Of a stretch of 64,000 bases of DNA, positions 22,748 through 44,680 are shown one piece after another. Source of the DNA: Pseudomonadales bacterium (GTDB lineage: Bacteria; Pseudomonadota; Gammaproteobacteria; Pseudomonadales; UBA7434); the NCBI GenBank assembly GCA_965216795.1, contig OZ244196.1, positions 2,650,368 through 2,714,367 on the forward strand, written 5' to 3'. The notes beneath the pieces are model-generated. The model searched no databases. It worked only from the letters and a program-made list of their open reading frames with translations, and was not told the DNA's origin. Made by a program: the position numbers and the translations under genes. The first letter of the stretch is position 1. The number at the start of each line of letters is the position of its first letter.

Positions 22748-24037
22748 ATGCCTGTATCCGTTGCCAAGCTGGTCAGCGAGGACGCCTGCTATGTCAGCCG
22801 CCGCGCCTGGGCCGATCACGATGTCTATACACTTGAAAAGAAAGGCATTTTTGGCAGGTCCTGGCTGTTCCTGGGCCATGAATCGCAGATCCCCGAGCCG
22901 GGTGATTTTGTCCAGGCCTACATGTGCGAAACCCCCATTATTCTTTCACGCGGGCAGGACGGCAAAGTTCGGGCGCTGGTGAACAGCTGTTCTCACCGGG
23001 GTTTGCCGGTCTGTCGCTCAGACCATGGCAACACCAAGCGCTTCATTTGCCCTTACCACAGCTGGGCCTACAGCGTGGAGGGTGAGTTGGTGACCATCCC
23101 ACAGGAGTCGGAGGTCTGCAACAAGCCGGATAAATCGCGACTGGGCCTGAAGCCTGTGCCCCGGCTCGAGAGCTGGCACGGCATGTACTTTGGCAGTTTC
23201 AATGAGGATATTGAGTCGCTTGATGACTATCTGGGCGACCAGCGCTTTTACCTCGAGGCCTTCTTCGGCCGGTTCGAAAATGGCATCGAGTTTATGGGGG
23301 CGCCGCATCGCTGGGTGCTGAACGCCAACTGGAAATTGCCCGTAGAGAACCAGATTGGCGATGTGAATCACGGCGCGTTCCTGCACAGTACGCTGATTCC
23401 GCGCGAAGCGCAGGACCAGATCGAAGCGCTCGGCTACAGCGCCGTCGTTGGCGAGGGCGGCCATGGCGCAACCTTCAGGCTCATGCCTGAAGATGCTCCC
23501 GTTGAAGAGGTTGCCTGGGGGTTTGAAGGTATGGGCGCGGCGCTGGGCGGGGCAGAAGTGCAGGAGTACCTGCGCGAAGTGCAGGCCAAAGCCGCAGAGC
23601 GAGTTGGTGCGCTGCGCGCGCGCTTCAAGGGCCTGACCTTTGGCGTGTACCCCAACCTGTCTTTCCTGTGGTCGAATACCTCCTTCAAAGTGTCGCATCC
23701 GCGCGGGCCCCACAAAGTCGAGTACTGGTCCTGGTCGGCGGTCCCCGCCGATGCGCCGGATGCTATCAAGAAAGTCCTGCGCACCAACTACAGTTCGTTC
23801 TTCGGGCCCGGCGGCCTGGTCGAGCAGGAAGACTCTGAAGCCTGGATGCAGCAGCTGGTGGGCAGTCGCATCGATTTCGTCGATGACAGGCCTTACTTTT
23901 ATGGCCTGGGCGAGGGTATGGAAAAACCACACCCCGAGATGCCCGGGCTGGTTAGCGTGACGGCCAACGAGTACTACGCCCGCGCATTCTTCAAGCGCTG
24001 GCAGCGCGAGCTGGCTGCCGTGGAGGGTGTGCAATGA
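22748..24037 (+). CDS. Aromatic ring-hydroxylating dioxygenase, alpha (Rieske) subunit
   Basis: 429 aa with Rieske motif CSHRGLPV...CPYHSWAY, followed by a catalytic domain. Confidence 0.85.
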   Translation: MPVSVAKLVSEDACYVSRRAWADHDVYTLEKKGIFGRSWLFLGHESQIPEPGDFVQAYMCETPIILSRGQDGKVRALVNSCSHRGLPVCRSDHGNTKRFICPYHSWAYSVEGELVTIPQESEVCNKPDKSRLGLKPVPRLESWHGMYFGSFNEDIESLDDYLGDQRFYLEAFFGRFENGIEFMGAPHRWVLNANWKLPVENQIGDVNHGAFLHSTLIPREAQDQIEALGYSAVVGEGGHGATFRLMPEDAPVEEVAWGFEGMGAALGGAEVQEYLREVQAKAAERVGALRARFKGLTFGVYPNLSFLWSNTSFKVSHPRGPHKVEYWSWSAVPADAPDAIKKVLRTNYSSFFGPGGLVEQEDSEAWMQQLVGSRIDFVDDRPYFYGLGEGMEKPHPEMPGLVSVTANEYYARAFFKRWQRELAAVEGVQ

Positions 24038-24600
24038 GTGCCGCCTTCCCCCGCCGCGTCGTGAGCGCGGACGAGCAGTTTGCGATAGAGCAATTCTATT
24101 TCTACGAGGCGCGGCTGCTGGATGGCCGCCAGTTCAAAACCTGGTTGACACTGCTGGACCCGGGCATACAGTACCTGATGCCATCGCGCATCAACACGCA
24201 GGTAAATAACCGCGATAAGGGCAACGAATCGATGCTCGGCGTAGAGCGCGAGCTGGAAAACAGTGATTCGATGGGTTGCCCGCTGCGCGAGGAAAACATC
24301 ATTCACCTGACCCTGCGAGCTGAGCGCGGGTACATGATTAATGCCTGGGCTGAAAACCCGCCCGCGAGAACGCGGCGCATTATCGGCAATGTCGAGGTGC
24401 TAGCGAGCAGCGAAGAATGCTTCGAGGTCGTGAGTAACTTCCACCTGTACTTCAGCCGGCCAAGCAGCGCCGACTTTATCTACAGTGGGCAGCGCAGTGA
24501 CCGGCTGCTAAGGCAGGATGATGGTTTGCTGCTGGGCAGGCGAGAGGTCGTCATGGACTACTCGGTGATCGAGGTGCCGACCATGGGGCTCATCTTCTAG
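24034..24600 (+). CDS. Aromatic ring-hydroxylating dioxygenase, beta subunit
   Basis: 188 aa. The start overlaps the alpha stop (ATGA). NTF2-like beta-subunit pattern (QFYFYEARLLDGRQFKTWL). Confidence 0.8.
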   Translation: MSAAFPRRVVSADEQFAIEQFYFYEARLLDGRQFKTWLTLLDPGIQYLMPSRINTQVNNRDKGNESMLGVERELENSDSMGCPLREENIIHLTLRAERGYMINAWAENPPARTRRIIGNVEVLASSEECFEVVSNFHLYFSRPSSADFIYSGQRSDRLLRQDDGLLLGRREVVMDYSVIEVPTMGLIF

Positions 24601-24717
24601 CGACTGCGGCCAGGCTGCCGGTGCCAGGGTCAAGCCCGCGGGTAGATCGATTTGCGCTAGAATACGCGCCTATGCTGTAGCATAAGCGTAATCTTGGCGT
24701 CGTCACCCGGACCGATT

Positions 24718-25665
24718 ATGAGCACCTTTCCCAAGTTCAAGCCCACAGACTACCCGACGGTTTACCTCGAGCAGACCGACAAGGACTTCTCGGACTCCCT
24801 GCAGTCGAATTTTCGTTACGCCTATTTCAAGACCATTGCCAAAGGTGGCAAGTCGCTGATTCAGTCGTGCAAGGATATGCATCTGGGGCGGGTGGTGTGC
24901 TACAAATCGCTGCTGCCTGAAGTTGCCGACGACCCCATAGAGCAAAAACGCCTGCTGCGCGAAGCGCGGATTTCGGCCATGCTGCAGCATCCAAATACGA
25001 TGCCCACCTATGAGCTGGGTCGCGATCGCAAAGGGCACTACTACTTTACTATGAAGCTGGTGCATGGTTATACCTTCCGTGAAATTATCGATTTTCGCGA
25101 GCGCTATGACCTCGGCCAGTTGCTCGATATTTTGGTACAGGTCGCCTATGCGCTCGATTATGCACACACGCATGGCGTCGTGCATCGCGATATCAAACCT
25201 GAAAACATTCTCGTGGGCCCGTTTGGCGAGGTGCTACTACTCGACTGGGGGCTCGCCAAGGTGCGCAGTGAAACAGGGCAGGCCGCCGATATTGATGCCG
25301 TCGACCCGCAAGTGAGCGCGCCCGAAAAAACCATGACAGGGTTCCAGAAGCTGCAGGGTACCGTGAGTTATATGTCGCCCGAGCAGATGGACAAGTCACC
25401 CGATATCGATGGCCGCACCGACATATACAGCCTGGGCGTCGTGCTTTATGAGGCGATCTGCGGAGAGCTGCCGGTATCGGGCGACACCGTCGACAAGGTC
25501 ATGGCCAGCGTGCGCAACGATGTGCCGCCATTGCCATCGACCTTGACCACAATGCCGGTGCCGACCCTGCTCGAAGAGACCGTCATGCATTGCCTGCAAA
25601 AATCGCCGGCGCAGCGACTGGCGACGATGGGCGACTTTGTCCGGCAGCTAAAACACTGTTACTGA
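24718..25665 (+). CDS. Ser/Thr protein kinase (kinase domain only)
   Basis: HRDIKPENILV catalytic loop, DWG (DFG-like), SYMSPE (APE-like). First ATG at 24718; the ORF opens at TTG 24694. Confidence 0.8.
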   Translation: MSTFPKFKPTDYPTVYLEQTDKDFSDSLQSNFRYAYFKTIAKGGKSLIQSCKDMHLGRVVCYKSLLPEVADDPIEQKRLLREARISAMLQHPNTMPTYELGRDRKGHYYFTMKLVHGYTFREIIDFRERYDLGQLLDILVQVAYALDYAHTHGVVHRDIKPENILVGPFGEVLLLDWGLAKVRSETGQAADIDAVDPQVSAPEKTMTGFQKLQGTVSYMSPEQMDKSPDIDGRTDIYSLGVVLYEAICGELPVSGDTVDKVMASVRNDVPPLPSTLTTMPVPTLLEETVMHCLQKSPAQRLATMGDFVRQLKHCY

Positions 25666-26414
25666 CCGCCGCTCAGTCGCGCGAGAATTAGCGAGATATT
25701 GTCCTGCCCGCCGCAATCGAGCGCGCGGTCGAGTAGCTGTTCGGCGAGATCATCGAGATTGTCGGCGTGACGTGTGGCGTATTCGAGCAGTCTTTCATCA
25801 TCGACTTTGTCTGACAGGCCGTCGGTGCAGGCCAGGATAATATCGTGCTCGTCGACCGTTGCGGTGCCCGTACCCGGTTGCAATAGCAGTATGCTGCCAA
25901 CGCGCTGGGTCAGTATTCTCCCTGCCGACCTGTGCAGTTTCGGCGCCGTTTTGCGATCGATTTTGTCCGGGTCGAGTGTGTGGTCGCTACTGAGCTGCTT
26001 AACCTCGTTGGTGTGCGGGCGAATGCGATAGATACGCGAATCACCGACCCATGAGTAGGTCAGCTGCTGCTCCTGCAAAGTGAAGCAACTTAGCGTGCAG
26101 CCCATCTTGCTGTAATCGGGGTTGTTTTGCTGCACAGCGATGATCGCCTCGTTGGCAAACTTCACCGCGTTGGCAAGTACCATTTCACGGTCACGCTGTG
26201 CCTTACCCGTGTCGCCGCCGGCGTCAGCCAGAAACTCCATGCAGGCATCGACCGCCATCTGGCTGGCCACTTCGCCGTGGGCGTTGCCGCCGATGCCATC
26301 GGCGATCGCCGCAACGCCCTGCGGGGCGTTGATCGCCAGGCAGTCTTCATTCTTGCGACGGACTTTGCCGCGGTCGCTGCGACTGGCAAACTCGATAGAA
26401 CAAGGTTTTGACAT
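25659..26414 (-). CDS. PP2C-family Ser/Thr phosphatase
   Basis: SDRGKVRRKNEDC, DGIGG, CTDGLSD and GGQDNISLILARL motifs. Start set at MSKPCSIEF. The 3' end overlaps the kinase 3' end by 7 nt. Confidence 0.8.
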   Translation of the reverse strand: MSKPCSIEFASRSDRGKVRRKNEDCLAINAPQGVAAIADGIGGNAHGEVASQMAVDACMEFLADAGGDTGKAQRDREMVLANAVKFANEAIIAVQQNNPDYSKMGCTLSCFTLQEQQLTYSWVGDSRIYRIRPHTNEVKQLSSDHTLDPDKIDRKTAPKLHRSAGRILTQRVGSILLLQPGTGTATVDEHDIILACTDGLSDKVDDERLLEYATRHADNLDDLAEQLLDRALDCGGQDNISLILARLSGGQ

Positions 26415-26489
26415 GGGGCTAGTGTAGCCAATCTCGCCGGCTAAGCCCACCGTCCGGGGCTAAGTAGCGGGCGGTGCCTGTCTCGCCGC

Positions 26490-26900
26490 TTAGCCGAAAA
26501 ACAGTTCTGCGGCGAGAAAGGCGAAGAAAAAACCAACGAGATACACCAGCACCGAAAACCACAGGATGGCCCAACTCAACCGGCGTAGCCTCATGCATGC
26601 CCGGGCCTTGACTGGGTCGGCCGGGCAGGGATCGTTGCGGGCGCGCCATTGCGCAGCGCCTGCCAGTGCCAGCAGAATACCTGCAGCAGCGAACACTGCA
26701 GCTTTATACTCGGAGATTGCCGTGATCCATGGCGCTGCGCCAATCAGCCCAGCCAGTGAGGCGCCCATGCCGAGCGTGACCAGCAGGGCGGGCAGGGCGC
26801 AGCACACGAGCGTGCCCATGGATGTGAACAAGCTCAACGAGGGCAGGATCGTTTGCCGCCACAGTGACGGCTCTTCGCTGAGCGGGGCCTCATTCATCAT
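26490..26900 (-). CDS. MerT-like three-TM heavy-metal transport protein
   Basis: 136 aa. CC pair in TM1 (GTLVCCALPALL) and a second Cys pair between TM2 and TM3 (DPCPADPVKARAC), the same architecture as remembered MerT. Confidence 0.55.
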   Translation of the reverse strand: MMNEAPLSEEPSLWRQTILPSLSLFTSMGTLVCCALPALLVTLGMGASLAGLIGAAPWITAISEYKAAVFAAAGILLALAGAAQWRARNDPCPADPVKARACMRLRRLSWAILWFSVLVYLVGFFFAFLAAELFFG

Positions 26901-27186
26901 GGCGTAGCGCCCTTACATCGTAACCGGCGTCGTTGATCACGCTGATAATCGTTTCATCATCAAGCTGCTTGCCCTCGTGGAAGTGAATGCTGATGACTTT
27001 GGTGTCGAGATTGACCTCGATTGACTCTACCGCGTCCTCGCGTTTGAACATCTTTTCCAGTGCGCGGGCGCAGAAGTCACAGACCAGGCCGTTGACGTCG
27101 GCGTGGACGGTGCCGCCGGGGTGAGCAGCGCCAATGTGTACGGAGAAAAGCAGTGCGCATAGCGCGGTAACCAATAATCTATTCAT
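26890..27186 (-). CDS. Periplasmic heavy-metal-associated (HMA, MerP/CopZ-like) protein
   Basis: 98 aa. Signal peptide plus a CxxC metal loop (VNGLVCDFCA) in a ferredoxin-like-sized domain. Confidence 0.7.
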   Translation of the reverse strand: MNRLLVTALCALLFSVHIGAAHPGGTVHADVNGLVCDFCARALEKMFKREDAVESIEVNLDTKVISIHFHEGKQLDDETIISVINDAGYDVRALRHDE

Positions 27187-27202
27187 GTGGCAGGTCTCCG
27201 GG

Positions 27203-27835
27203 TTAGTACCTGAAAATATAGTTGAACATCACATCGCCATGGTTGCTGATACCAATTTCGACCATATGCACATCCTTGAACAGCCTGGCCATCGGTGTCA
27301 CCGTGAAGGTATTGCGCGACTCGGGCATGTGGCGTGCCTCGAGCATCAGCCAGGTGTGCAGGTCGCCGTAGTCACCTTCATACGGCGCCCAGCCAATGCG
27401 GGCGGTCTGCTGGTAAAAGGCGTCGATATCACCGGCGTGGGTGTAGCGGTTTTCGTAGGCCACAAAGTAGCGACGATCTTCCCAGTCCAACGCGAGGCCT
27501 GTGAATGCGGCCAGCTCTTCGCTGCCACCAAAGTCACTCCTGGCGGCACCGATACCGGATTTCAGATAGATGTTTGCCTGGCTCTCTTTCTGGTTCCAGC
27601 GCTGTAGCAGGCGGTTGACCTGCACGGCGTTGATCCTGAAATCCCTGTCGTGCCAGTCTTCAAACTTGTAGCCGATCGATGTTTTGACCGTCGGTGAATA
27701 ATGAAGGTGGGCAGAGCGTCGGTTGCCATCGTTCATTGACATCAGTGTCCAGCCGCCCGGGTACGATACGGGGCGAGCGTCGACATGCTGGGTAACCAGC
27801 CCGAGCACAGCCAGGGCCAGTGTATAGATTCGCAT
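27203..27835 (-). CDS. Putative small outer-membrane beta-barrel protein
   Basis: 210 aa. Signal peptide, alternating aromatic/polar pattern, C-terminal ...FNYIFRY. No family recognised. Confidence 0.4.
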   Translation of the reverse strand: MRIYTLALAVLGLVTQHVDARPVSYPGGWTLMSMNDGNRRSAHLHYSPTVKTSIGYKFEDWHDRDFRINAVQVNRLLQRWNQKESQANIYLKSGIGAARSDFGGSEELAAFTGLALDWEDRRYFVAYENRYTHAGDIDAFYQQTARIGWAPYEGDYGDLHTWLMLEARHMPESRNTFTVTPMARLFKDVHMVEIGISNHGDVMFNYIFRY

Positions 27836-27872
27836 GGAATCCTCCTGTTCAGTTGCAGTACTTATGCAAGAA

Positions 27873-28232
27873 TCAGGAGGGTGCTTTAGGTGGGCGTCTT
27901 GGTGGTGATGGGATTAAAGAGGCAAAGTCTTGCTGCGCAGTGTTAATGCGTGCTTTGCCCAAAGCGGCAAACTCGATGGCTGGCAGCCCTTCGAGCATGG
28001 GCGTATTCTGGAAAGAGGCGTGGACGCAAAGGCATGCGCCTTCGCAGTGGTTGGGCTGCTCGGGCGTAACGGCGTCCCCTTGTTCATGGCAGGGCGCGTT
28101 GGCAGGCTCAATATCCAACACCTGGCTGGGGCCACCATCATGGCTGCCGTGGCAGCTGCCCGACAGCGCTGCGGCGGCAAATGCGTTTGCCGAAAGCAGC
28201 GCTACGAGCGCGAAAACGATGAAATTCTTCAT
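27873..28232 (-). CDS. Small secreted Cys/His-rich protein (DUF2946/CopL-like?)
   Basis: 119 aa. Signal peptide; SCHGSHD, PCHEQGD and HCEGACLCVH clusters; proline/arginine tail (SPPRRPPKAPS), as remembered for DUF2946-type proteins. Confidence 0.45.
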   Translation of the reverse strand: MKNFIVFALVALLSANAFAAAALSGSCHGSHDGGPSQVLDIEPANAPCHEQGDAVTPEQPNHCEGACLCVHASFQNTPMLEGLPAIEFAALGKARINTAQQDFASLIPSPPRRPPKAPS

Positions 28233-28317
28233 ACCTTAAGACTATACCAGCCTGGGGCCAAAAAGTTCATCGCGTTTTGCTGACTGTGAGCGCATGCGCA
28301 TTTCGCGCGGGTGTCGC

Positions 28318-28746
28318 CTAGGCTGCGTCGACTTCTTTCAGCGTTGCCAGGCCTTCGTCCCACTCCCAGAAGCCGCGCAGGTTGGCCAGTTTGCCCTCGT
28401 CGTTAATGCGGTAAGTGAAGATACCTTCAACGGTCTGCTGGTACTTTTTACCGCCCATATCCATCGTGATCTTGAGGGTCAGGCGATTGGCGCATTCACG
28501 CGCGGCGGTGTGTGACTCATGAATCGTAATGTTGATATCGGAGTTGGCGATGCTTGTGTTCCAGAAGGCCTCGCGCGCCTCGGGCGTGCCGTGGCCTTTG
28601 CCCGACGGGTCGAGGTCAGAGACGCCAATAGGGTCCTCGATCAGGCCATCTTCGGCAAACATGCCCAGCCAGCCTTCTTTGTTATGGGTGTGAACGTACT
28701 CGCGTGATTTCAATGCCATTTGGTAGGCAACATTATCTTCTTTCAT
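28318..28746 (-). CDS. SnoaL/NTF2-like (ketosteroid-isomerase-fold) protein
   Basis: 142 aa. Size and pattern fit the NTF2-like fold (WLGMFAEDGLIEDPIG). Confidence 0.55.
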   Translation of the reverse strand: MKEDNVAYQMALKSREYVHTHNKEGWLGMFAEDGLIEDPIGVSDLDPSGKGHGTPEAREAFWNTSIANSDINITIHESHTAARECANRLTLKITMDMGGKKYQQTVEGIFTYRINDEGKLANLRGFWEWDEGLATLKEVDAA

Positions 28747-29032
28747 TGCGTGCTCCGGTGTGTTGGTTCGAGCAGGTTGCGGCGGGTATTGCCAGTAACC
28801 CAGGCGTGGCTATGTGCGCAAGGCATCTGGCACCCGCGGCCACGAACGGAGCTAATTTATCAGAAGTCATTGCTGCAGTCGCGCTTTTTTCCATTACCTA
28901 ACCTTACATGCTGATAACCCGCCCGGCGGGGTAAACTGGCGCTGAATCCGGCGTTGGCAGTGCGGCGATATGGCGAGCTGCACAGCTTGCGATGCCGGCC
29001 TGACGCAAAAGATCAATGAATCGGGCGGGACA

Positions 29033-29596
29033 ATGAACAGCTCTCATCAATCACCATCGGTCCACCCTTTGGCAGTAATAGATAAGGCGCTCGCGTTTGC
29101 TGCGCGGGTCTTTGCCCGCCGCTATGCTGTTATGGTCGCGCTCGCGCTGTCTGCAATGTTGGCAGGCTGTAGCAGTATAGGGTCATCGTCGAGCGGCCTG
29201 GGCGCAGAAGACCTTGCCGAGATACGCCAACTGCTGGCGCGCTATACCCTGCTTGCTGATGTTGAAAAGGATCACGCGGGCGAGGGTATGCGTGAGATCT
29301 TCACGGAAGACGGCACCTTCCAGGTGCCCGGTATTGATCTCTACGTGAACGGCATCGATGCCATTGTTGCGTTCTTTCGGGACAGGCCTGGCGGAGACCA
29401 CCATATCAACAGCAACCTGGTTATCGAGGGAGATGGCGAGCGTGCGCAGGTGATGAGCTATGTCCACATCATCAAGGCAGAGCAGGGTGTCGAATCTTTA
29501 GTGTTTGGTTACTACGAAGATAGCCTGGTCAAGACGGCGCAGGGCTGGCGAATCCAGCTGCGCAATACCGTGTTGTTGGGGTTCTCCCCTGAGTAG
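29033..29596 (+). CDS. Lipoprotein with a SnoaL/NTF2-like domain
   Basis: Start at ATG 29033. Lipobox LAGCS. IRQLLARYTLLADV..., typical of SnoaL_4-like domains. Confidence 0.5.
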   Translation: MNSSHQSPSVHPLAVIDKALAFAARVFARRYAVMVALALSAMLAGCSSIGSSSSGLGAEDLAEIRQLLARYTLLADVEKDHAGEGMREIFTEDGTFQVPGIDLYVNGIDAIVAFFRDRPGGDHHINSNLVIEGDGERAQVMSYVHIIKAEQGVESLVFGYYEDSLVKTAQGWRIQLRNTVLLGFSPE

Positions 29597-29665
29597 CGTC
29601 GGAAAAGTCCGCTATTGATTTGATAGCTGGCCCCTTTCCTGCTTTCCTGATTGTCTTCCGGCGAA

Positions 29666-32335
29666 TCAACTGCCGCTGGCGTTGTTCCAGCGCCTGCGCT
29701 GCAGCCGCAGCGCTGCGAGCACCAGGCCTGCCAGCAAGCTGGCGAGCCCCCAGGGTCCCATCGCGGGGACGTTTTTCCCGGCAAGATCGGGCACAAGCGG
29801 GTTGGAGCCCTGGCTGATTTCCTGGCCATCCGGGGTGCCATCGCCATCGGTGTCAGCATTGAACGGGTCTGTTCCGGCCAGTGCTTCGTCCGTAGCGCTA
29901 AGACCATCATGGTCGTGATCATTAAACAGCGGGTCAAAGCCGTTATCGACCTCAAACTTGTCGAGAATGCCGTCGCCGTCGGTGTCGTTATTGGTTGGGT
30001 CAGTGCCGGCGGTTTGTTCTTCCAGAGACGTGAGCCCGTCGCCGTCGGGGTCTGAGCTGGCGCTGTCGGCAACCAGCGGGTTCAGCCCGAACTGCACTTC
30101 AAACCCGTCTTCCAGCAGGTCGTTATCGGTATCGTTGTCACCCGGGTCAGTGCCGGCGGCCTGCTCCTGAAGGTTATTGAGGCCGTCATTATCGCCATCC
30201 AGTGATTGCTCGCCCGCTGCAAAGGGATCCAGGCTGTTGTCTGTCTCGAACACATTGAGCAGGCCGTCCCCGTCAATATCCATCTCAAAGATGTACGTCG
30301 AACCGGTATCGACGGCGACGCCATCGTCAAAATAGGCACCAACCAGTACCGTGTTTCCTGACAATGCGACGGTCGTGCCGAAGATATCATCAGGTGCAGC
30401 GTCTGTTGCTATGAGCTTTTGATGCTGGGTCCAGGCCTGGCCCTGCTTGATGAACACATAGGCCGAGCCTGCGTCGGTGGCCGCCGCGCCGTCTTGCCAT
30501 GCGCCGAATATCGCCCGGTCGCCATCGACTGCGACGCTTACGCCCAGTTCCGAGCTGGCGATGTCACTGGCCAGTAAAATATCCTGCTGCGTCCAGCTTG
30601 TGCCCGCGCGTTCATAGACATAAACAGCCCCTGCGCGTGGGGTAGCGCCTTCATCCCGTTTGAAAGCACCGACCATGGCGGTATCGCCGCTGACAGAGAC
30701 AGACAGTCCGAATAGATTGCCCGCAGCAGCATCGGAGGCGACCAGTTTTTGCTGCTCTGTCCAGGTCGCCAGGCTATTGGTAAAGACGTAAGCAGAACCC
30801 ACCAGGTCGCCGGTTTGGTGAGCACCCACGATAATCGTGTCGGCGTTTATAGAGACTGCGACGCCAAACAGGTCCTGCACAGCGCCATCACTTGCCGTGA
30901 GTATCTGTTGTTCGGACCAGCTGACCCCCGCGCGGGTAAAGACATAGGCCGCGCCGGTATCCGAAGCGGTGCTATCTTCGAATACCGCGCCCGCGACAAC
31001 GGTATCGCCCTCTAATGCGACTGCGCCTGCAAAATTGTCACCCGCGCCTGCATTGCTTGCGGTCAGCTTGGCTTGCTGCGTCCACACCCCCGCGTTGCGC
31101 ACAAACACGTAGGCAGCGCCAGAATCCGTGCCATCGTCGTCGTCTTTTGGCGCGCCAACGACAATCGTATCGCCACTAATATCGACGGCGGTGCCAAAGT
31201 TGTCATCAGCAGCAGCGTCACTGGCCACGAGTTTTGCCTGTTCGACCCAGGTGCCACCGCTGCGAACATAGACGTATGCCGCGCCTGAACCGGCGGCGAC
31301 ACCGTCTTCTTGCCAGGCGCCCACGACTACAGTGTCGCCGTCCATACGAACCTGGGTGCCAAACTGGTCTTCGAATGCTGCGTCACTGGCGACCAGTTTC
31401 TGTTGCAGCGGCGTGTCGTTCGGGTCGAGTGGGTCGGCGCCAAAGCTGACCTCGTTGCCGTCGGTTGTGCCGTCGCTGTCGGTATCAGGGTTTCGAGGGT
31501 CGGTCCCTGCCGATTGCTCCTGCAGGTTATTCAGGCCGTCGCCATCCGTATCCAGTAGCGCTTCGCCCGCTGCCCAGGGCAGAAAACCGTTGCTGAGTTC
31601 GAAGTCATCGAACAGGCCGTCTGCATCCGCGTCACTGCTTCCGCCTGCTGAGACAAAATAGTTATCGAAAGTCGTCTCTGCACTGGCAGACAGTGTTGTT
31701 GATAGTGCGATGACCGCGCCCAGTGGGTCAGATGACAGCAGGGCGTTGGTTGCAGACAGCGTTTCAAGAAGGACCGGGCTGCTACCGACAGGCAGTTCAT
31801 AGAGCCGGGCCTCCAGCTCGTCAATGCCGGCGCCGCTCCTTCGCAAAACAAGACGATATTGATTGCCAGCGTTGAGTGAGACCGTACCGGTGTCCAGCGT
31901 TGTGCCAAACGCATAGGTTGAGCCCGACTCGTGCACCAGCAGGAAAAACGTGCCGAACACCGTTGCGCGGTAATTCGCGTTGCCGGCGGCATTTGCCAGC
32001 GCCAGGCTGGTTGCAGAATTGCTACCCCAGTCGGTGAAATCGACCGAAGCGGTTGCCGTGTTGTAATTGCTGGCGGTGCCACGCGCATAAGCACTGTAGG
32101 GTGCCGAGCCGCCGGTGACACTCAGGCGGTAGCGAAATTCGCCCGCGTTATTCGGGTCGGCCGGGTAATCAATGGTGGTGGTGCCACTGGCCGCGTTGGT
32201 TTCAGTCCAGTTTGTTACAGGGCTTGTGCCGCTGTCGAAGTTTTCGTACTGCTGGGCAAGGGTGGGTAGCGACAGGCTGGCAAGAAGACTGGCGGCAAGC
32301 CATCGGGTAAAGCAGTAGCGCATTGAGATTCTCAC
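29666..32335 (-). CDS. Large exported FG-GAP beta-propeller / thrombospondin-type-3 Ca-binding repeat protein with an IPTL/PEP-CTERM-like anchor
   Basis: 889 aa. Signal peptide; repeated ~55-aa units (L.ASD.A..D.FG..V...GDT..VGA...D....SGAAYVF); DTDGDGL.N..E...GTDP repeats on both sides; C-terminus [27 protein letters not shown]. Confidence 0.8.
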
Positions 32336-38383: not shown

Positions 38384-40336
38384 TCAGTTTGGATCAAACC
38401 AGATAGGCGAGGTATAGGCACGTTCCTGGCCAAACTTGGGTGACTGTTCTGGCGCGGCTTCACCGAAGTGTTTCTCGTCAATGGTAGTCCATCGCGGTGT
38501 AGGAATCTCGAGTACCCTTGCGTAGTAAAACGCGCGAAGGTTTGGGTCAAAATCAGGGTCACGCCACACCACGCTCAGTGACGTGTCACCAATGGTGTTG
38601 GTATAACTGGCCGATGCGACATCGACGGTATTGCCCACCGGCTTGACCTTGTTCCGTTTGATTTTGCGACCGTCAGAAGCTGCGACGTTGTATACCTGCT
38701 CCTGGGTGTTGCCTTCGGCATCGACCCAGCCCTTGATGATCTGGATGCGATCGAGATTGGCGCCGATCGGGTCTTTCAGTGCTGAGACTATAAACGTGGG
38801 TGCCTTGTCGCCGCCCGGTGACTGGAGGGTTCCCCCCATGGGCACGCCATTGCGATAGGCATGGGTAACATAATCGTGGCGATCGACCGTGCTGTGGTCA
38901 TAGTCCCAGCCACCAAAAAAGCGCACCGTCATGCGTGGCCCGGTAGTCGCGTAGACTTCTTTGCGCTGCATCGCATCAAACAGCGCCTTGCGGGTGTTCT
39001 CGCGAGCCCAGACCGCTGCGTAGCCCGAAGATGCAGTCTCCCAGTGATGAACACTGATGCCAGAACCCGCATCGTCTTCAAAAAAGCTCTTATGCGCTCG
39101 CCCGGGCATGGGCTCGACCGACGTCATTTTGCCGAAGAAGTTATCTTCATCGCTGGTGGCAAGGCCGGTGTGCGAGTCGGTGCTGCCGATCATGCCGAAC
39201 TTGTAGGGGTTAACCCCGATTTGTTCTTCGAGCGCCAATCCATTTTTGAGCGCAGATCGCGCGTACTCAAACTCGAGCATGTTGTCTTCTTTTGCGGCCA
39301 GGAAAGACAGGTTGCTCATATCCCAGGTTTCATAATCGGCAAACTCGTCGCTGGGCGATAAAACCGGGTGTGCCTCGCCATCGCCCTTGATCTGGGTCAC
39401 CTCAATAATGGGCTCGTATTTCACGCGCAATGCGGCTTGCTCGGCGGTCAGGGGCTCGCCGGAAAAGGTGGTTTCGGCAAACATCAGGCCGTTGCTGACG
39501 TTGCCGTTGTGCGGAATCGACAGAACCCTGCCGCCGGTTGTGGATTCATAATTGGCCAGATATGCCCAGAGATCCTCCGGGTTGCCGCTATCCATTGATG
39601 AAAAGGGTACAACCTGTCCGGTTGTTTGCGCATCGTCGGCAAACAGCACATTGCGGTGCAGGTTGTTACCGCCCGGCATCGATGTGTATTCATAGCCAAT
39701 AAACGCCGTAAATGTGCCTGGCCGGTTATAGGCATCGGCCGTAGCGCCGACTTGCTTCCAGACAGACTCGACCACCGGGGCCGGTACCTCAAGGCCCTGC
39801 AGGGAGCGGATATGCTCAACGGTGATCCAGGAGCTCCCCTGGGTATAAATCTCGGGGTTTTCAGCGGTTGTTGCGCCCATGGACATGAGGCCGAACTCCA
39901 TCACAACGAGTTGGTGCTTTCCCTCGGCTACGTATTTGGCCCAGCGTTTGCCCAGGTTGGTCTCCGCGATATCGGGTGAGCCGGCAAATACCTTGGGGAA
40001 AATGCCCATAAACTCGGCGTGGTCCGACACCATCAAAAAGTCCAGTGGCCTTGCGAGTTTGGCCTTGACGCCCGTCTGGGAGGTGACCGTTTCGCCCATC
40101 GCAAAGCGATACGCATCTGCTGGCGTAATCGTGCGGTTGCCGAAGGTAAAAGCATCCGGAGACTGGTTGGTATGCAGGTGGGTATCGCCCCAAAAAACCT
40201 GGGCCGGAAAATCGTTGGCAACCGGCGGTGAGTATTCATGTTCTTTGGCCTGTGAGCCAGCCGTGGCAAGCACCAGGGCTGTAGAACACAGGAAGCTGCA
40301 AATTACTTTGATCGAACGCGCGCGCATATTAGACAT
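38384..40336 (-). CDS. Exported DUF3604 family protein (paralogue 1)
   Basis: 650 aa. Signal peptide; FWGDTHLHT metal-type motif; conserved C-terminus WRDPDFDP...YYARVLEIPTPRW...SPIW. Confidence 0.8.
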   Translation of the reverse strand: MSNMRARSIKVICSFLCSTALVLATAGSQAKEHEYSPPVANDFPAQVFWGDTHLHTNQSPDAFTFGNRTITPADAYRFAMGETVTSQTGVKAKLARPLDFLMVSDHAEFMGIFPKVFAGSPDIAETNLGKRWAKYVAEGKHQLVVMEFGLMSMGATTAENPEIYTQGSSWITVEHIRSLQGLEVPAPVVESVWKQVGATADAYNRPGTFTAFIGYEYTSMPGGNNLHRNVLFADDAQTTGQVVPFSSMDSGNPEDLWAYLANYESTTGGRVLSIPHNGNVSNGLMFAETTFSGEPLTAEQAALRVKYEPIIEVTQIKGDGEAHPVLSPSDEFADYETWDMSNLSFLAAKEDNMLEFEYARSALKNGLALEEQIGVNPYKFGMIGSTDSHTGLATSDEDNFFGKMTSVEPMPGRAHKSFFEDDAGSGISVHHWETASSGYAAVWARENTRKALFDAMQRKEVYATTGPRMTVRFFGGWDYDHSTVDRHDYVTHAYRNGVPMGGTLQSPGGDKAPTFIVSALKDPIGANLDRIQIIKGWVDAEGNTQEQVYNVAASDGRKIKRNKVKPVGNTVDVASASYTNTIGDTSLSVVWRDPDFDPNLRAFYYARVLEIPTPRWTTIDEKHFGEAAPEQSPKFGQERAYTSPIWFDPN

Positions 40337-40596: not shown

Positions 40597-42441
40597 ATGC
40601 GAACGCCGACTGGAACGCCAACAAAAGCCAAAAAATGCTACGCACGTTCATTGGAATACTCCGCTCTTATTTTTACCACGTTACTGGTTAGCGGCGCGAG
40701 CATCGCGCTAGACACCGATGGCGATGGGCTTTCGAATACCGTCGAAACCAACACGGGCACCTTTGTTTCAGCTTCCGACACCGGCAGTGATCCGGTGGTT
40801 GCAGACACCGATATCGATGATTTTAATGACGGCATTGAGGTGTCATTGGGCACCGACCCGAATTCCGCACTGAATAGCCCGCGTGAAACGCACCTTGAGC
40901 CAGCTTACCCCGAAGTCTTTGGCCGCTTTGGTTTTAGCGTCGCGGTCGATGTCGACACGTCCGGCGCTTGCCAGATAAGGTTGGGCGCTAGTAGCGGTGT
41001 TGCCCAGATTTTTACAAGAGTAGGGGCGCAATGGTTGGAGCAAGGCCAGCTATTCACTGGCGGACTGGCCACCGGCCTGTTTTGCTGGAGTATCGCTTTG
41101 TCGGGTGACAGTGCCGCGATTGGCGCTCCGGGCGATGCGACCGGAGGCGTGGTTTATATTTTTGACCGGACGGGTTCCACCTGGCCATTCACCTCGACTC
41201 CTCTCGTTCCCGGCGATTCAGCAGGTGGCGATAGCTTTGGCTATGCCGTTGACATCGATGGTGACACGCTGTTCGTGGGCGCTCCGTTTGATGATGACAA
41301 TGGCAGCGCATCGGGCTCGGTCTACGTTTTCACGCGAACCGCCGGGGTTTGGAGCGAGCAAGCCAAGATTACCGCTGGCGATGGCACTGCCAACGACAAT
41401 TTTGGTCAAGACCTTGAATTCTCGGCAGGTTCGCTGATTGTCGGTGCGCCTGGTGATTCTGATAGTGCCAGCAATGCTGGGTCAGCTTACATTTTCACCG
41501 GCTCGGGGAGCAGCTGGACACAGCAAGCGAAACTTTCAGCGAGCACGCCCGCTGCCGATGATGCCTTTGGCACTGCAGTCAGTATTTCAAGCGATAGCGT
41601 ACTGATCGGCGCTCCTGGAGATGCTGCGAATGGCGCAGGTGCAGGTGCTGCCTATGTGTTCACGGGCTCCGGTTCATCCTGGGCCCAGCAGCAAAAATTG
41701 TTGCCCGGCGACGGTGCCAGTAATGATGTGTTTGGCGATGATGTTGCGCTCTGGGGAGAGGTTGCCGTCGTTAGTGCACCCTTTGATGATGGCCCCACCG
41801 ATTCAGGTTCAGCCTATGTTTTTTTACGCTCTGGCACAGCGTGGGTGCAAATTGATAAGTTCAAGCCCGCCGCTAGTGGGCAATCCGACAATTTTGGAGA
41901 GCGAATCGCTATTGATAATGGCACTGTAGCGCTTGGCGCTCCTACGCGGCAAGGTGCAACCGGCGCAGCTTATATCGTTGATCTGGACATCGATAAAGAT
42001 GGTTTGCTTAACGCGGTAGAGAGTGGCACTGGCATATTCGTATCGCAATTCGACACGGGGACTGACCGCCTCGACGCCGACAGCGATGAAGACAACGTCA
42101 TCGACGGCGATGAAACGCAAATTCATGGCACTGACCCGAATGCCAATGATACCGATGGGGACGGCATCCTTGATGATGCCGAGATTGCAATTGGTTGGAA
42201 CCCTTTGTCAGATGACATTGATAACGATGGCCTGACCGATGCTGAAGAGTCAGGCCTTGGTACTGACCCGCTACTTGCTGACACCGACATGGATGGCATT
42301 AGCGATGGTGATGAAATCGCGAGCGGCACGGACCCACTCATAGTTGATAACGGTACAAAGAGTGTTCCAGCAATGGGTGCGATGGGTTTATTTGCATTGA
42401 TGTTGGGGTTATTGTTTCTCGGCGTGAGGGTGAAGGCTTGA
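40597..42441 (+). CDS. Exported FG-GAP beta-propeller / TSP3-repeat protein with an IPTL/PEP-CTERM-like anchor (paralogue of 29666-32335)
   Basis: 614 aa with the same repeat types (GD...FG.AV.I.GDT..VGAP.DD....SGS.YVF; DTDGDG). C-terminus [26 protein letters not shown]. Confidence 0.8.
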
Positions 42442-44453: not shown

Positions 44454-44680
44454 CCGCGCAATCAGGATAGCATGTCGTCATCTCAACTATCGGAAGTGGC
44501 CAGGCGCACGTTAGGTAACCCGAGTCTTCAGACAGAATACTCCCCGTTTCCAGTGCGCTCACCAAAACATCATGGGGGTCACACGGCTGTGGCCGCAGCT
44601 AACTGGACTATCTGAAAAGACAGTTGATTTTCTTCGCTAAAGAAGAACAATGTAGGCTTTCGCTCGCCACGAGAGAAACT

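Follow-up and report, generated by a model that had tools for sequence, protein, structure and literature searches.

Results

A four-gene cassette on the minus strand

The DNA analysed here (the window) is a 64-kb stretch from a Pseudomonadales bacterium. At 26490-28232 it carries four co-directional genes, designated A to D in the direction of transcription (Table 1). An ORF check found all four where the original prediction had placed them, and two details noted there are borne out as well: the first ORF is a protein with five Cys and five His that contains HCEGACLCVH (residues 62-71), and the C and D ORFs share 11 nt. The remaining gaps are operon-like, with 37 nt between A and B and 16 nt between B and C. 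An Rfam scan of 24000-31000 returned no known RNA family; a match to AAC_AAD_leader at 29655-29722 was discarded as weak and at chance level. No description of this gene set was found in a literature search.

Table 1. Features of the cassette, with coordinates in the window
Feature	Position	Strand	Description or basis
Gene A	27873-28232	-	119 aa; most likely an exported Cys/His leader peptide, CutF/CruR-like; 5 Cys, 5 His
Gene B	27203-27835	-	210 aa; secreted, predicted 12-stranded outer-membrane beta-barrel, new family
Gene C	26890-27186	-	98 aa; secreted HMA-domain metallochaperone (MerP/CopZ-like), metal loop VNGLVCDFCARALEK
Gene D	26490-26900	-	136 aa; 3-TM inner-membrane protein, MerT-like
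Putative -35 hexamer TGAACT	28264-28269	-	By eye and by analogy with related loci
Putative -10 hexamer TATAGT	28241-28246	-	Comparison of related loci
HCEGACLCVH codons (presumed metal-sensing motif of A)	28020-28049	-	Cys conservation, fixed spacing
R112-R-P-P-K116 codons (presumed ribosome-arrest motif of A)	27885-27899	-	Conserved Pro, tail length
mRNA hairpin, end of A with Shine-Dalgarno of B	27841-27880	-	Folding and covariation

The putative -10 box ends 8 nt before the ATG of A, and the -35 hexamer lies 17 nt further upstream. This placement recurs: 40 of 55 related loci have a TATAAT-like hexamer (five or six of six positions; perfect in 25 loci) whose end lies 6-9 nt ahead of an in-frame ATG of A, compared with only 26 of 474 other ORF starts in the same loci. 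Because the -10 box sits so close to the start codon, the position suggests that the mRNA of A is leaderless or nearly so. Related loci carry (A/T)TGACA 17 nt from the -10 box, to which the TGAACT of the window is a weak match (3/6). A consensus promoter scanner called no promoter here, and the putative promoter was recognised only through the comparison of loci. A consensus terminator scan gave one irrelevant terminator-like site only.

The cassette is conserved as a unit

The gene arrangement is conserved far beyond chance. Of 80 related loci, all 80 have B, 79 have C and 73 have D, with order and orientation unchanged, and an ORF resembling A lies upstream in at least 56. The original prediction would have fallen had the four genes not been conserved together; they are, in loci that span Alpha-, Beta- and Gammaproteobacteria, Bdellovibrionales and Verrucomicrobiota. 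TARA-derived Alphaproteobacteria have the same four genes down to an identical 11-nt C/D overlap. Overall, the cassette occurs in hundreds of mostly marine Gram-negative species and is commonest in MAGs from marine metagenomes. There is no other conserved neighbour, no further family being found in more than 10 of the 80 loci. A "response regulator" cluster present in 10 of them was considered as a fifth gene or linked regulator and rejected: its position and orientation vary and it lies 2-6 kb away. A gene for a glutaredoxin-MauE/DoxX fusion directly follows D in 7 of the 80 loci.

The locus had been described as an orphan MerT-like/MerP-like operon without MerA or MerR, and this holds across the 64-kb window. 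Pfam scans of its 40 largest ORFs found neither protein, and tblastn of the window with Tn21 MerR, MerT, MerP, MerC and MerA gave nothing (best E 1.6 for MerA and 0.16 for MerR). Nor does any reductase- or regulator-like family recur beside the cassette in the 80 loci.

The C-D pair also exists on other replicons, where it stands without any A. On Vibrio and Variovorax plasmids, a D-family gene lies beside a gene for a periplasmic HMA protein; on the Vibrio plasmid the two adjoin a divergent MerR-family regulator (an activator) and a Tn3 transposase, a setting that is resistance-like. A 243-aa protein encoded after the Vibrio HMA gene was tried as a third lineage of the triad and dismissed, being unrelated to B (hhalign probability 0.2%) and without a Pfam match. 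The GDCCVxC (seleno)proteins were likewise rejected as relatives of D: they are small, cytoplasmic and Cys-rich but unrelated to it, and the tblastn match near one such gene is an unannotated D-like ORF beside that gene.

C and D resemble MerP and MerT, and D forms a family of its own

C passes the Pfam threshold for the HMA domain (PF00403; 31.6 bits against 24.8, E 2e-7) and its motif VNGLVCDFCA, including C36 and C39, is invariant across 29 sequences, in agreement with the periplasmic HMA protein with a GLVCDFC loop that had been anticipated. It falls well below the cut-off of the NCBIfam MerP model (TIGR02052; 27.1 bits against 92.55) and below those of all NCBIfam CopZ models.

For D, the MerT model (PF02411) aligns over 96 of 116 positions with an E-value of 3.5e-5, at 24.2 bits compared with a threshold of 32.9. 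A failure against MerT models had been named as what would undo the assignment, and the outcome is divided: the protein does match the model, and it does so below the curated cut-off. None of 25 relatives of D improves on this sub-threshold E-value. The only NCBIfam hit is MerTP_fusion (E 0.48), and hhalign of D against authentic MerT gives a probability of 60.6% (E 8e-5). The predicted architecture is nevertheless that of MerT: hydropathy reveals three hydrophobic blocks and a positive-inside loop (85-108) with seven Lys/Arg, a vicinal Cys pair (33-34) sits in TM1, and C92-P-x-D-P-x5-C102 lies in the TM2-TM3 loop. All four Cys residues are invariant in the family, whose mean column identity is 61%. 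The 3-TM protein with MerT-style CC and CxnC pairs was thus correctly anticipated, and judged by its sequence D is a three-helix relative of MerT that constitutes a separate, strongly conserved family.

The likeness to the Tn21/Tn501 MerT/MerP pair extends to gene order: the gene for a secreted HMA protein of the CxxC type comes first and the gene for an inner-membrane protein of three helices second. The latter protein has vicinal Cys residues in its first helix and another Cys pair in a basic cytoplasmic loop, and the two genes are adjacent and translationally coupled in mer as in C-D. There are also clear differences: (i), the second Cys pair of D is C-x9-C, compared with C-x5-C in Tn21 MerT; (ii), the loop of C reads GLVCDFC and not the GMTCxxC of MerP; (iii), unlike mer operons, the cassette is without MerR, MerA and MerD and has an outer-membrane barrel and a leader peptide in addition.

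B represents a new family of predicted outer-membrane barrels

B has no match to a Pfam or NCBIfam family at E-values up to 1, and none of its 1374 homologues is named. Its conservation is unusual among outer-membrane proteins: mean column identity reaches 73%, and 17 sequences from different classes share 66 invariant positions, among them His45, His160, His169, His190 and the loop PYEGDYGDLHTW. AlphaFold2 (AF2) predicts 12 strands (pLDDT 85.8) and the protein ends in F-R-Y, with an aromatic final residue. Foldseek retrieves KdgM, NanC, invasin and PcoB barrels (TM 0.41-0.58), so that the barrel proposed originally for this 210-aa protein is predicted here by AF2 and Foldseek alike. The closest parallels are KdgM and NanC (probability 1.0, TM 0.44-0.58); like them, B would be monomeric, about 200 residues long and folded into a 12-strand barrel, and it too has a signal peptide and ends in an aromatic residue. 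PcoB (7pge), a copper-resistance outer-membrane protein and hence tied to copper, shares the barrel fold class and ranks only 32nd (TM 0.41-0.43, 9% identity); there is no sequence match of B to PcoB/CopB, and a close structural likeness to them was not found. KdgM, NanC and PcoB have no detectable sequence relationship with B, which on the predicted model represents a new, highly conserved family of outer-membrane barrels.

A has the features of a leader peptide

The N-terminus of A (MKNFIVFALVALLSANAFAAAA) was judged by eye to be a signal peptide (residues 1-24 approximately). It is followed by C27, PCH (47-49) and the HCEGACLCVH motif, and the C-terminal half consists of a 44-residue spacer, PPRRPPK (110-116) and a short APS tail before the stop codon. 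The family alignment has few conserved columns (mean identity 23%): C63, C67 and C69 are invariant or nearly so, P114 and P115 are invariant, and the C-terminus is conserved as PPxRPPKxxS, which places the presumed arrest motif four codons before the stop. What is kept is distance. Of the 63 candidate upstream ORFs listed, 33 have exactly 44 residues from C-x-C to the terminal PP and another 21 have 41-46, which makes 54 in total; the tail after PP is exactly 4 residues long in 44 of the 63. In the family, the segment from the first Cys to PCH is rich in Met (11.3% of residues, compared with about 2% elsewhere), although the window's own A has no Met in this sensor segment. AF2 predicts no fold for A (pLDDT 53, pTM 0.21).

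The protein is difficult to find by routine searches. A matches no Pfam or NCBIfam family. A check against DUF2946 (PF11162) had been proposed: the window's protein has no match at E up to 10, and sub-threshold matches only were obtained for relatives, in 5 of 33 (best E 0.015) and, among the cluster representatives described below, in 10 of 47 (best E 7e-4). A collection of 15 billion proteins does not contain the exact sequence, a search with the single sequence gave no match in a 5.8-billion-protein index, and a profile built from locus-derived A sequences recovered 9 proteins only. The family became visible only in an exhaustive profile search, which returned 463 cluster representatives sharing this layout. 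Gene callers often fail to annotate the leader gene. Against solved structures, the profiles of A and D gave noise only.

This layout is not unprecedented: it recalls CutF-cutO of Rhodobacter capsulatus and CruR-bfrG of Bordetella pertussis, copper-sensing upstream ORFs of the DUF2946 type (PMC9973294, PMC9426467). In both, a small Sec-exported peptide heads the operon, a Cys motif lies about 45 residues before a proline arrest motif (the 45-residue ruler) and that motif is found a few residues before the stop (PMC9426467, PMC9973294). CutF-like peptides have been defined as having fewer than 150 residues, a signal peptide, PP in the last 15 residues and a next gene on the same strand within 1000 nt (PMC9973294), and A falls inside this definition with its 119 residues, its PPRRPPKAPS terminus and B 37 nt downstream. 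Copper genes mostly lie downstream of Cys-type CutF-like leaders (PMC9973294). The motifs themselves differ, C...PCH...HCxGxCxCxH and x-R-P-P-K in A standing against CxxxC/PPP in CutF and CxxC/RAPP in CruR. The mRNA of A is apparently leaderless, unlike those of CutF and CruR, and the genes that A would control (new-family barrel, HMA, MerT-like) are outside the neighbour classes named in the text of the CutF and CruR papers; the supplements of PMC9973294 contain nothing on HMA or MerT neighbours. A further parallel is offered by SecM, VemP, MifM and ApdA/ApdP, exported nascent chains with a C-terminal arrest motif, in which the stalled ribosome opens a helix masking the ribosome-binding site downstream. 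These peptides monitor the secretion machinery and have secA, secDF or yidC downstream, whereas the Cys/His/Met sensor segment of A and the genes that follow it point to a metal signal.

The end of A pairs with the ribosome-binding site of B

CCUCCUG at the end of A, which includes the Ser codon UCC and the UG of the stop codon, pairs with CAGGAGG, the Shine-Dalgarno (SD) sequence of B located 5 nt before its ATG. In the window the 79-nt stretch folds at -18 kcal/mol, and most loci have the same pairing with intergenic lengths of 35-139 nt. Across 58 loci, 69.3% of cells are paired, compared with 64.3 +/- 1.0 in shuffled controls (0/500 reach this value), and the covariation score is 0.209, whereas shuffling gives 0.139 (0/500) and slid registers no more than 0.101. 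Covariation includes the stop codon, whose second base forms G-C with its partner in 24 loci and A-U in 11. The whole-region fold of the A-B junction is unremarkable (z-score -1.31); judged from these sequences, support for the helix is comparative, not thermodynamic. A CutF-like stem-loop, with covariation, is found at the position given in Table 1. As in cutF-cutO, it hides the ribosome-binding site of the next gene within a short intergenic region. It differs from CutF and CruR in that the anti-SD arm is the leader's own last sense codon and stop codon.

Since only short motifs are conserved, the spacer is fixed, the proline motif is near the stop, the 3' end pairs with the SD of B and no fold is predicted, A is most likely, by analogy with known arrest peptides, a metal-sensing ribosome-stalling leader that regulates B, C and D and not itself a part of a transport chain. 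The original prediction had made A a periplasmic Cys/His relay protein. That view finds no support here: A bears the hallmarks of an exported arrest-peptide sensor of the CutF/CruR type.

Discussion

The comparisons above show four genes that are conserved as a unit, a fixed spacing of motifs in A, a covarying SD-sequestering helix, the position of the putative promoter and the predicted fold class of B; ribosome stalling, the identity of the metal, the direction of transport and the sign of regulation are inferred. We propose that the four genes are a self-contained cassette that takes up a thiophilic metal, probably Cu(I), under translational gating, a proposal for which we consider the case evenly balanced. 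A would be translated from a probably leaderless mRNA and would sense periplasmic metal while still attached to the ribosome. By analogy with RAPP and poly-Pro arrest motifs (PMC9426467, PMC9973294, PMC10987492), arrest is assumed to occur at RPPK. A ribosome at this position would leave the Cys/His motif 44 residues back, approximately at the periplasmic mouth of the Sec channel, and would itself sit on the foot of the helix, which would thus be held open. The length of the pause, set by metal binding, would then determine how much B is made; C and D, close downstream, would probably be affected too. B would serve as a small 12-stranded outer-membrane channel, C as an HMA chaperone of the periplasm whose CxxC loop receives the metal, and D as a MerT-like permease that passes it from the Cys-Cys pair in the membrane to the cytoplasmic Cys pair. 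The cargo would most likely be Cu(I) and the direction inward, as in scavenging of a scarce metal without TonB or ATP. An envelope-spanning route for a thiophilic metal, as envisaged at the outset, thus stands as the best functional reading of the locus, still a proposal, and it stands without the part that had been given to A.

Copper is favoured as cargo because the A family has a Met-rich sensor segment and because Cys-type CutF-like leaders mostly precede copper genes. Against this, both C (CDFC) and D (CPxDP) have a conserved Asp next to their Cys pairs, and A has an acidic residue in HC[ED]G; such residues may indicate that the metal is Zn(II) or Cd(II) and not Cu(I). OprC/NosA (TonB-dependent), CcoA (MFS) and CopCD/YcnJ belong to unrelated protein families and share with the cassette the role proposed here, delivery of scarce copper to periplasm and cytoplasm; unlike these known importers, the cassette would require neither TonB nor a proton-coupled carrier and would cross both membranes by means of three small proteins. 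We know of no MerT-type protein shown to carry copper. In its boldest form, the hypothesis is that the cassette is a hitherto unrecognised kind of metal acquisition system, in which three small proteins import Cu(I) through both membranes with neither TonB nor ATP and a leaderless exported arrest peptide, gauging periplasmic metal from inside the translocon, is the sole regulator; that MerT-type permeases can also be nutritional; and that copper enters abundant marine lineages, whose genomes are small and regulators few, mainly by this and perhaps other such routes. We put this forward tentatively and lean somewhat against it.

Alternatively, the cassette could be induced by metal for protection: excess periplasmic metal would prolong the stall and turn B, C and D on, C and D would clear the thiophilic metal from the vulnerable periplasm to a buffered cytoplasm, as MerP and MerT do with Hg(II), and B may let metal out across the outer membrane, as proposed for PcoB, which is among the structural neighbours of B. 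The mer paradigm is indeed one of MerT and MerP in a metal-induced resistance operon, and the Vibrio plasmid, with its divergent MerR-family regulator and Tn3 transposase beside the D-family and HMA genes, speaks in the same direction. So does CutF: it is the only characterised leader with an SD-shielding stem-loop and it is copper-induced (PMC9973294; bioRxiv 10.1101/2025.02.05.636593), its downstream gene being turned on by metal, a response better suited to detoxification than to scavenging. The opposite sign is, however, equally possible for such leaders, as CruR indicates (PMC9426467). Moreover, in none of the 80 loci does the cassette have a linked reductase, oxidase, efflux pump or cytoplasmic sink, and import of copper without a sink is no detoxification. 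Trace metals are generally scarce in marine settings, and it is in MAGs from marine metagenomes that the cassette is commonest. Protection is in our view unlikely. A true mercury uptake module, with MerT and MerP feeding a MerA encoded elsewhere in the genome, is very improbable. The Cys-pair arrangement and sub-threshold MerT match of D and the MerP-like signal peptide and HMA domain of C would suit it, but C and D stay under the curated cut-offs, the loop of C departs from GMTCxxC, merA and merR are missing from the window and no reductase or regulator family recurs in the 80 loci. Import of Hg(II) without an adjacent reductase would be harmful, and the CutF-like leader class is tied to copper, not mercury (PMC9973294).

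Two further alternatives reassign individual parts of the cassette. In one, A is a stable periplasmic Cys/His protein, the fourth member of the relay, that carries metal from B or the medium to C, as first proposed. Its signal peptide and its five Cys and five His, some in conserved motifs, are compatible with this, the Met-rich segments of many homologues resemble periplasmic copper-binding proteins, and A may have a dual role as sensor and binder. A binding protein would not account for a sequence that is free to vary outside the motifs at a fixed length, nor for the PPxRPPKxxS terminus and the nucleotide-level conservation of the UCC-stop, which arrest and RNA pairing explain and a fold does not; the low AF2 scores, the C-D pairs that do without A on other replicons and the fate of CutF, which is degraded after export and undetectable in cells (PMC9973294), also argue against it. 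We regard a stable relay protein as quite improbable. In the other, the Cys pairs of C and D form a thiol/disulfide or other redox relay across the envelope and not a metal transporter. All the conserved chemistry is Cys-based, and the glutaredoxin-MauE/DoxX fusion gene behind D could be read in this way. It occurs in a minority of loci, though, and could equally well serve to keep metal-binding thiols reduced; both the HMA fold and the MerT-like layout are established metal-handling modules, and an outer-membrane channel would have no obvious role. We give a redox relay hardly any credence.

The preferred reading, gated uptake of a thiophilic metal, has to accommodate several observations. 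A remains below the DUF2946 threshold and its motifs are unlike those of CruR and CutF; D scores under the MerT family cut-off; the cassette has no linked cytoplasmic acceptor; and the plasmid variant in Vibrio is found in a resistance-like setting.

To our knowledge, the passage of copper across the outer and inner membranes is largely an open matter for most Gram-negative bacteria: few routes are known (OprC/NosA, CcoA, CopCD), and we know of none that is obviously that of the abundant small-genome marine lineages in which the cassette is common. If the proposed uptake route is true, the cassette would provide a compact and testable candidate for a copper route in these lineages, give MerT-like proteins a physiological role outside mercury resistance and add a new, very conserved family of outer-membrane proteins with a defined set of partners. 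A would then be among the clearest natural nascent-chain metal sensors and, with ruler length, arrest-motif position and anti-SD helix fixed and covarying across phyla, would make the CutF/CruR mechanism testable by compensatory mutations.

Organisation of the cassette

The four minus-strand ORFs of the cassette, namely the Cys/His-rich exported ORF A, the predicted outer-membrane barrel B, the HMA protein C and the MerT-like protein D, lie where the original prediction had placed them. Its finer details are also borne out: five Cys, five His and the motif HCEGACLCVH in A, the loop GLVCDFC in C, the Cys pairs CC and C-x9-C in D, and an 11-nt overlap of C and D. The gaps between A and B (37 nt) and between B and C (16 nt) each contain a GGAG, an operon-like packing. 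Pfam scans of the 40 largest ORFs and tblastn with authentic Tn21 Mer proteins found neither MerA nor MerR in the whole 64-kb window, and no recognisable copper gene anywhere in it. The presence of rpoD and dnaG at 54.5-58.5 kb marks the window as chromosomal, and the immediate neighbours of the cassette are unrelated to it (SnoaL-like proteins, a Ser/Thr kinase and a PP2C phosphatase, a Rieske dioxygenase, FG-GAP repeat proteins). The kinase and phosphatase genes are convergent, with a 3'-end overlap of 7 nt; because the phosphatase gene starts only about 40 nt past the stop of D and no terminator-like site intervenes, it may share a transcript with the cassette in this genome, an arrangement not conserved in other loci. 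Elsewhere in the window, three DUF3604 paralogues occur within 23 kb and G+C falls to 49-54% from about 42 to 54 kb.

Features of the window and of related loci (L-numbers) from other genomes
Feature	Position	Strand	Remarks
Gene A	27873-28232	minus	119 aa
Gene B	27203-27835	minus	210 aa
Gene C	26890-27186	minus	98 aa
Gene D	26490-26900	minus	136 aa
Putative -10, TATAGT	28241-28246	minus	ends 8 nt before the A ATG
Putative -35, TGAACT	28264-28269	minus	17 nt upstream of the -10 box
A-B hairpin	27841-27880		CCUCCUG pairs with CAGGAGG (folding)
Ser/Thr protein kinase	24694-25665	plus	
PP2C phosphatase	25659-26450	minus	
DUF3604 paralogues	38384-40336; 44624-46603; 59796-61694	minus; plus; minus	E 1e-162 to 4e-243
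Large FG-GAP/bacterial TSP3 repeat proteins (two)	29666-32335; 40597-42441	minus; plus	
D-family ORF, not annotated	L085 4854-5426		Vibrio diabolicus plasmid pSLV18-213K, NZ_CP069194.1; hhalign probability 99.8%
MerR-family regulator, unassigned specificity	L085 4320-4733		divergent from D-like ORF
Secreted HMA-like protein (VDGLNCALC) and D-family protein	L089 3630-4306		Variovorax sp. SRS16 plasmid 2; 7-nt overlap, both annotated hypothetical
Glutaredoxin-MauE/DoxX fusion gene	L017 7452-8024; L043 7338-8084; L050 4165-4905		also L024, L025, L029, L057
C homologues with His/Asp/Met-rich extensions after signal peptide	L009, L017, L079, L080, L081, L084		e.g. HHEGMDHSQQQE, HGKNHNHSKDMD
GTAAC/CGAATT upstream elements	L010, L014, L025, L029, L006, L012, L017, L030, L034, L041, L050		

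Gene A has the anatomy of an exported leader

Neither A nor B matches any Pfam or NCBIfam family. An A-like ORF lies directly upstream of B in most loci and is highly divergent (mean column identity 23%), with these conserved elements: a signal peptide, a Cys right after it, P-C-H, H-C-x-G-x-C-x-C-x-H and a terminal P-P-x-R-P-P-K-x-x-S. The spacer from C-x-C to the final PP is kept in length and not in sequence (44 residues in 33 ORFs, 41-46 in 21 more), and exactly four residues follow PP in 44 ORFs; the subfamily of C homologues that ends in a C-terminal Cys goes with leaders that carry CC...CDGCDCQHC motifs and a 41-residue distance from Cys motif to proline motif. An exhaustive profile search with A gathered 463 cluster representatives, all of 100-160 aa and of common layout. 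In the AlphaFold model, A has its signal helix and a single short helix but otherwise no fold (pLDDT 53, pTM 0.21). Its exact sequence is missing from a 15-billion-protein collection that does include B, C and D from this 3.4-Mb contig, so that A was evidently not called as a gene, and the leader appears to be routinely overlooked by gene callers.

This layout recalls the characterised copper-sensing upstream ORFs of the DUF2946 family, CruR and CutF (PMC9426467, PMC9973294). In Bordetella CruR, 45 residues separate CxxC from a RAPP that lies three residues before the end (PMC9426467); in Rhodobacter CutF, a spacer of 45 residues leads from CxxxC to a proline-rich motif with flanking basic residues (PMC9973294). 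A shares with them a Cys motif, a spacer of fixed length (44 versus 45 residues) and a proline motif near the C-terminus, and falls within the rule-based definition of 'CutF-like' (PMC9973294). All the architectural features of this class are thus present in A, whereas the DUF2946 model fails: the window protein does not match, and relatives match below threshold only (5/33, best E 0.015; 10/47, best E 7e-4), which makes A by sequence only a marginal DUF2946 relative. In CruR and CutF it is the exported nascent chain that senses copper in the periplasm, and the next gene is governed by how long the ribosome pauses (PMC9426467, PMC9973294). Thus, while the original prediction took A for a periplasmic relay protein, its short motifs, fixed spacer length, terminal PPxRPPK and lack of fold are those of a leader, and A is most likely the regulator of the cassette.

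A helix and a putative promoter frame gene A

In the window hairpin, the 5' arm comprises the end of the penultimate codon of A, the Ser codon UCC and the UG of the stop, and the 3' arm is formed by the Shine-Dalgarno sequence that lies 5 nt ahead of the B ATG; because of this pairing the last residue of A is nearly always Ser, encoded by UCC. An equivalent long-range pairing closes the A-B intergenic region (35 to 139 nt, often with an inner hairpin) in most loci. To avoid bias, pairs were counted in 58 loci with the stop codon as anchor of the 5' arm and the GGAG/GGAA core as anchor of the 3' arm. The helix has a core of 7 bp, and 69.3% of cells were paired, versus 64.3 +/- 1.0 in shuffled controls (0/500 reach 69.3%) and 37-47% in slid registers; the covariation score was 0.209, versus 0.139 in shuffled controls (0/500 reach 0.209) and at most 0.101 in slid registers. 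Covariation includes the middle base of the stop codon, which changes together with its pairing partner (UGA with C in 24 loci, UAA with U in 11), and UUCC arms co-occur with GGAA cores. RAPP-type peptides stall the ribosome once the first Pro codon has reached its P site (PMC10987492). Were A to stall in this way, the 5' arm would start 12-14 nt further on, where mRNA enters the paused ribosome, and in that position the pause would keep the helix open and free the ribosome-binding site of B. The geometry of the junction fits such a stall-operated switch, and helix opening by a paused ribosome has been proposed for cutF-cutO (PMC9973294; bioRxiv 10.1101/2025.02.05.636593).

Upstream of A, a sigma-70-type -10 box ends 6-9 nt before the ATG in 40/55 loci (perfect TATAAT in 25) versus only 26/474 other ORF starts in the same loci, and a good (A/T)TGACA lies 17 nt further upstream in 24 of the 40. 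From this position, transcription would begin at or beside the AUG, leaving A leaderless. Some loci carry two further short elements within 60 nt upstream of A: GTAAC, immediately preceding the -35 box, and CGAATT, in the 17-nt spacer; neither is in the window, and they might be an operator for a transcription factor or a trace of common ancestry.

A predicted barrel and a MerT/MerP-like pair that travel together

B has a signal peptide, a C-terminal F-R-Y and a modelled 12-stranded barrel (AF2, pLDDT 85.8) that resembles the small outer-membrane barrels KdgM, NanC and the invasin beta-domain, with PcoB ranked lower. Its conservation is exceptional among outer-membrane proteins: 66 positions do not vary between classes, among them four His, many in-strand polar residues and the loop PYEGDYGDLHTW, which speaks for a specific pore and against a general one. 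C is secreted, passes the Pfam HMA threshold and has the invariant motif VNGLVCDFCARALEK; some homologues have His-rich N-terminal extensions, and one subfamily ends in a C-terminal Cys. D matches nearly the whole Pfam MerT model below the gathering score (24.2 versus 32.9 bits) and aligns with authentic MerT from helix 1 to helix 2 in profile-profile comparison (probability 60.6%, E 8e-5). Of its three hydrophobic segments, the first holds the invariant C33-C34, while the invariant C92-P...C102 lies in a loop that is predicted to be cytoplasmic since it holds 7 K/R, the topology of MerT. D is thus MerT-like, yet belongs to a separate, tightly conserved family. The MerT/MerP-like pair originally proposed stands in that C has an HMA domain and D resembles MerT, although both score under the curated cut-offs of the Mer families.

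For B, 1374 homologues are detectable, typically of 60-68% identity and none of them named. When one genome per GTDB species was scanned, relatives of B turned up in 266 species; in the best 80 loci, B (80/80), C (79/80) and D (73/80) always follow in this order on a single strand, and missing cases are mostly truncated contigs. With B-C-D kept in 73-79 of the 80 loci, a lack of joint conservation, which would have spoken against the original prediction, is not what was found. The cassette moves alone through diverse genomic contexts, as no other family recurs in more than 10 of the 80 loci and the most frequent, response-regulator domains (10 loci), has no fixed position. Among the hosts, uncultured marine Alphaproteobacteria predominate (Micavibrio-like, Rickettsiales-like, one Pelagibacteraceae), joined by Gamma- and Betaproteobacteria, Bdellovibrionales and one Verrucomicrobiota MAG; a TARA Oceans alphaproteobacterial contig has the identical four-gene set and 11-nt overlap. 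In 7/80 loci, and not in the window, a fifth co-directional gene 50-70 nt past the MerT-like gene fuses a glutaredoxin domain to a MauE/DoxX membrane domain (Pfam E 4e-7 and 1e-14); its product may keep the Cys pairs of the cassette reduced.

The C-D pair also exists as a smaller unit, as Variovorax megaplasmids carry it without barrel or leader. On Vibrio plasmids, a D-family gene and a periplasmic HMA gene adjoin a divergent MerR-family regulator and a GDCCVxC protein; the record NZ_CP069194.1 extends the HMA gene, which lies downstream of the D-family ORF, upstream in a different frame (5072-5743 of L085), and the true HMA protein probably starts at MKRWLAL, giving it a signal peptide.

Cargo, direction and standing of the cassette

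The cassette joins a MerT/MerP-like pair, an outer-membrane barrel of a new sequence family and a CutF/CruR-like leader, a combination of which we found no description in the literature; it is best called a variant of known elements and not a categorically new system. The orphan MerT/MerP-like operon of the original prediction is real, with A most likely its regulator instead of a relay protein. Our confidence is high for the cassette and its cis-regulatory anatomy and moderate for metal transport.

Cu(I)/Ag(I) sites of the periplasm tend to be rich in Met, and the segment from the first Cys to PCH has 11.3% Met in the A family versus about 2% elsewhere. Acidic residues beside the Cys pairs, kept in C, D and A each, recall Zn/Cd/Pb sites such as GMDCxxC of ZntA and, with the absence of Met from this segment in the window A, count against Cu(I). 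Cys-type CutF-like leaders are mostly upstream of copper genes (PMC9973294). We put copper as the cargo at about an even chance, and likewise inward transport, suggested by the MerP/MerT paradigm. Sequence alone does not reveal the sign of regulation: copper lengthens the CutF pause and turns the downstream gene on (PMC9973294), and relieves the CruR arrest and turns it off (PMC9426467). A metal-induced protective system is a serious rival, to which the stem-loop type of leader and the MerR-linked Vibrio variant both point, but the cassette is self-contained, has no linked sink or efflux partner and is commonest in MAGs from marine metagenomes, and for these reasons we favour a role in metal scavenging.
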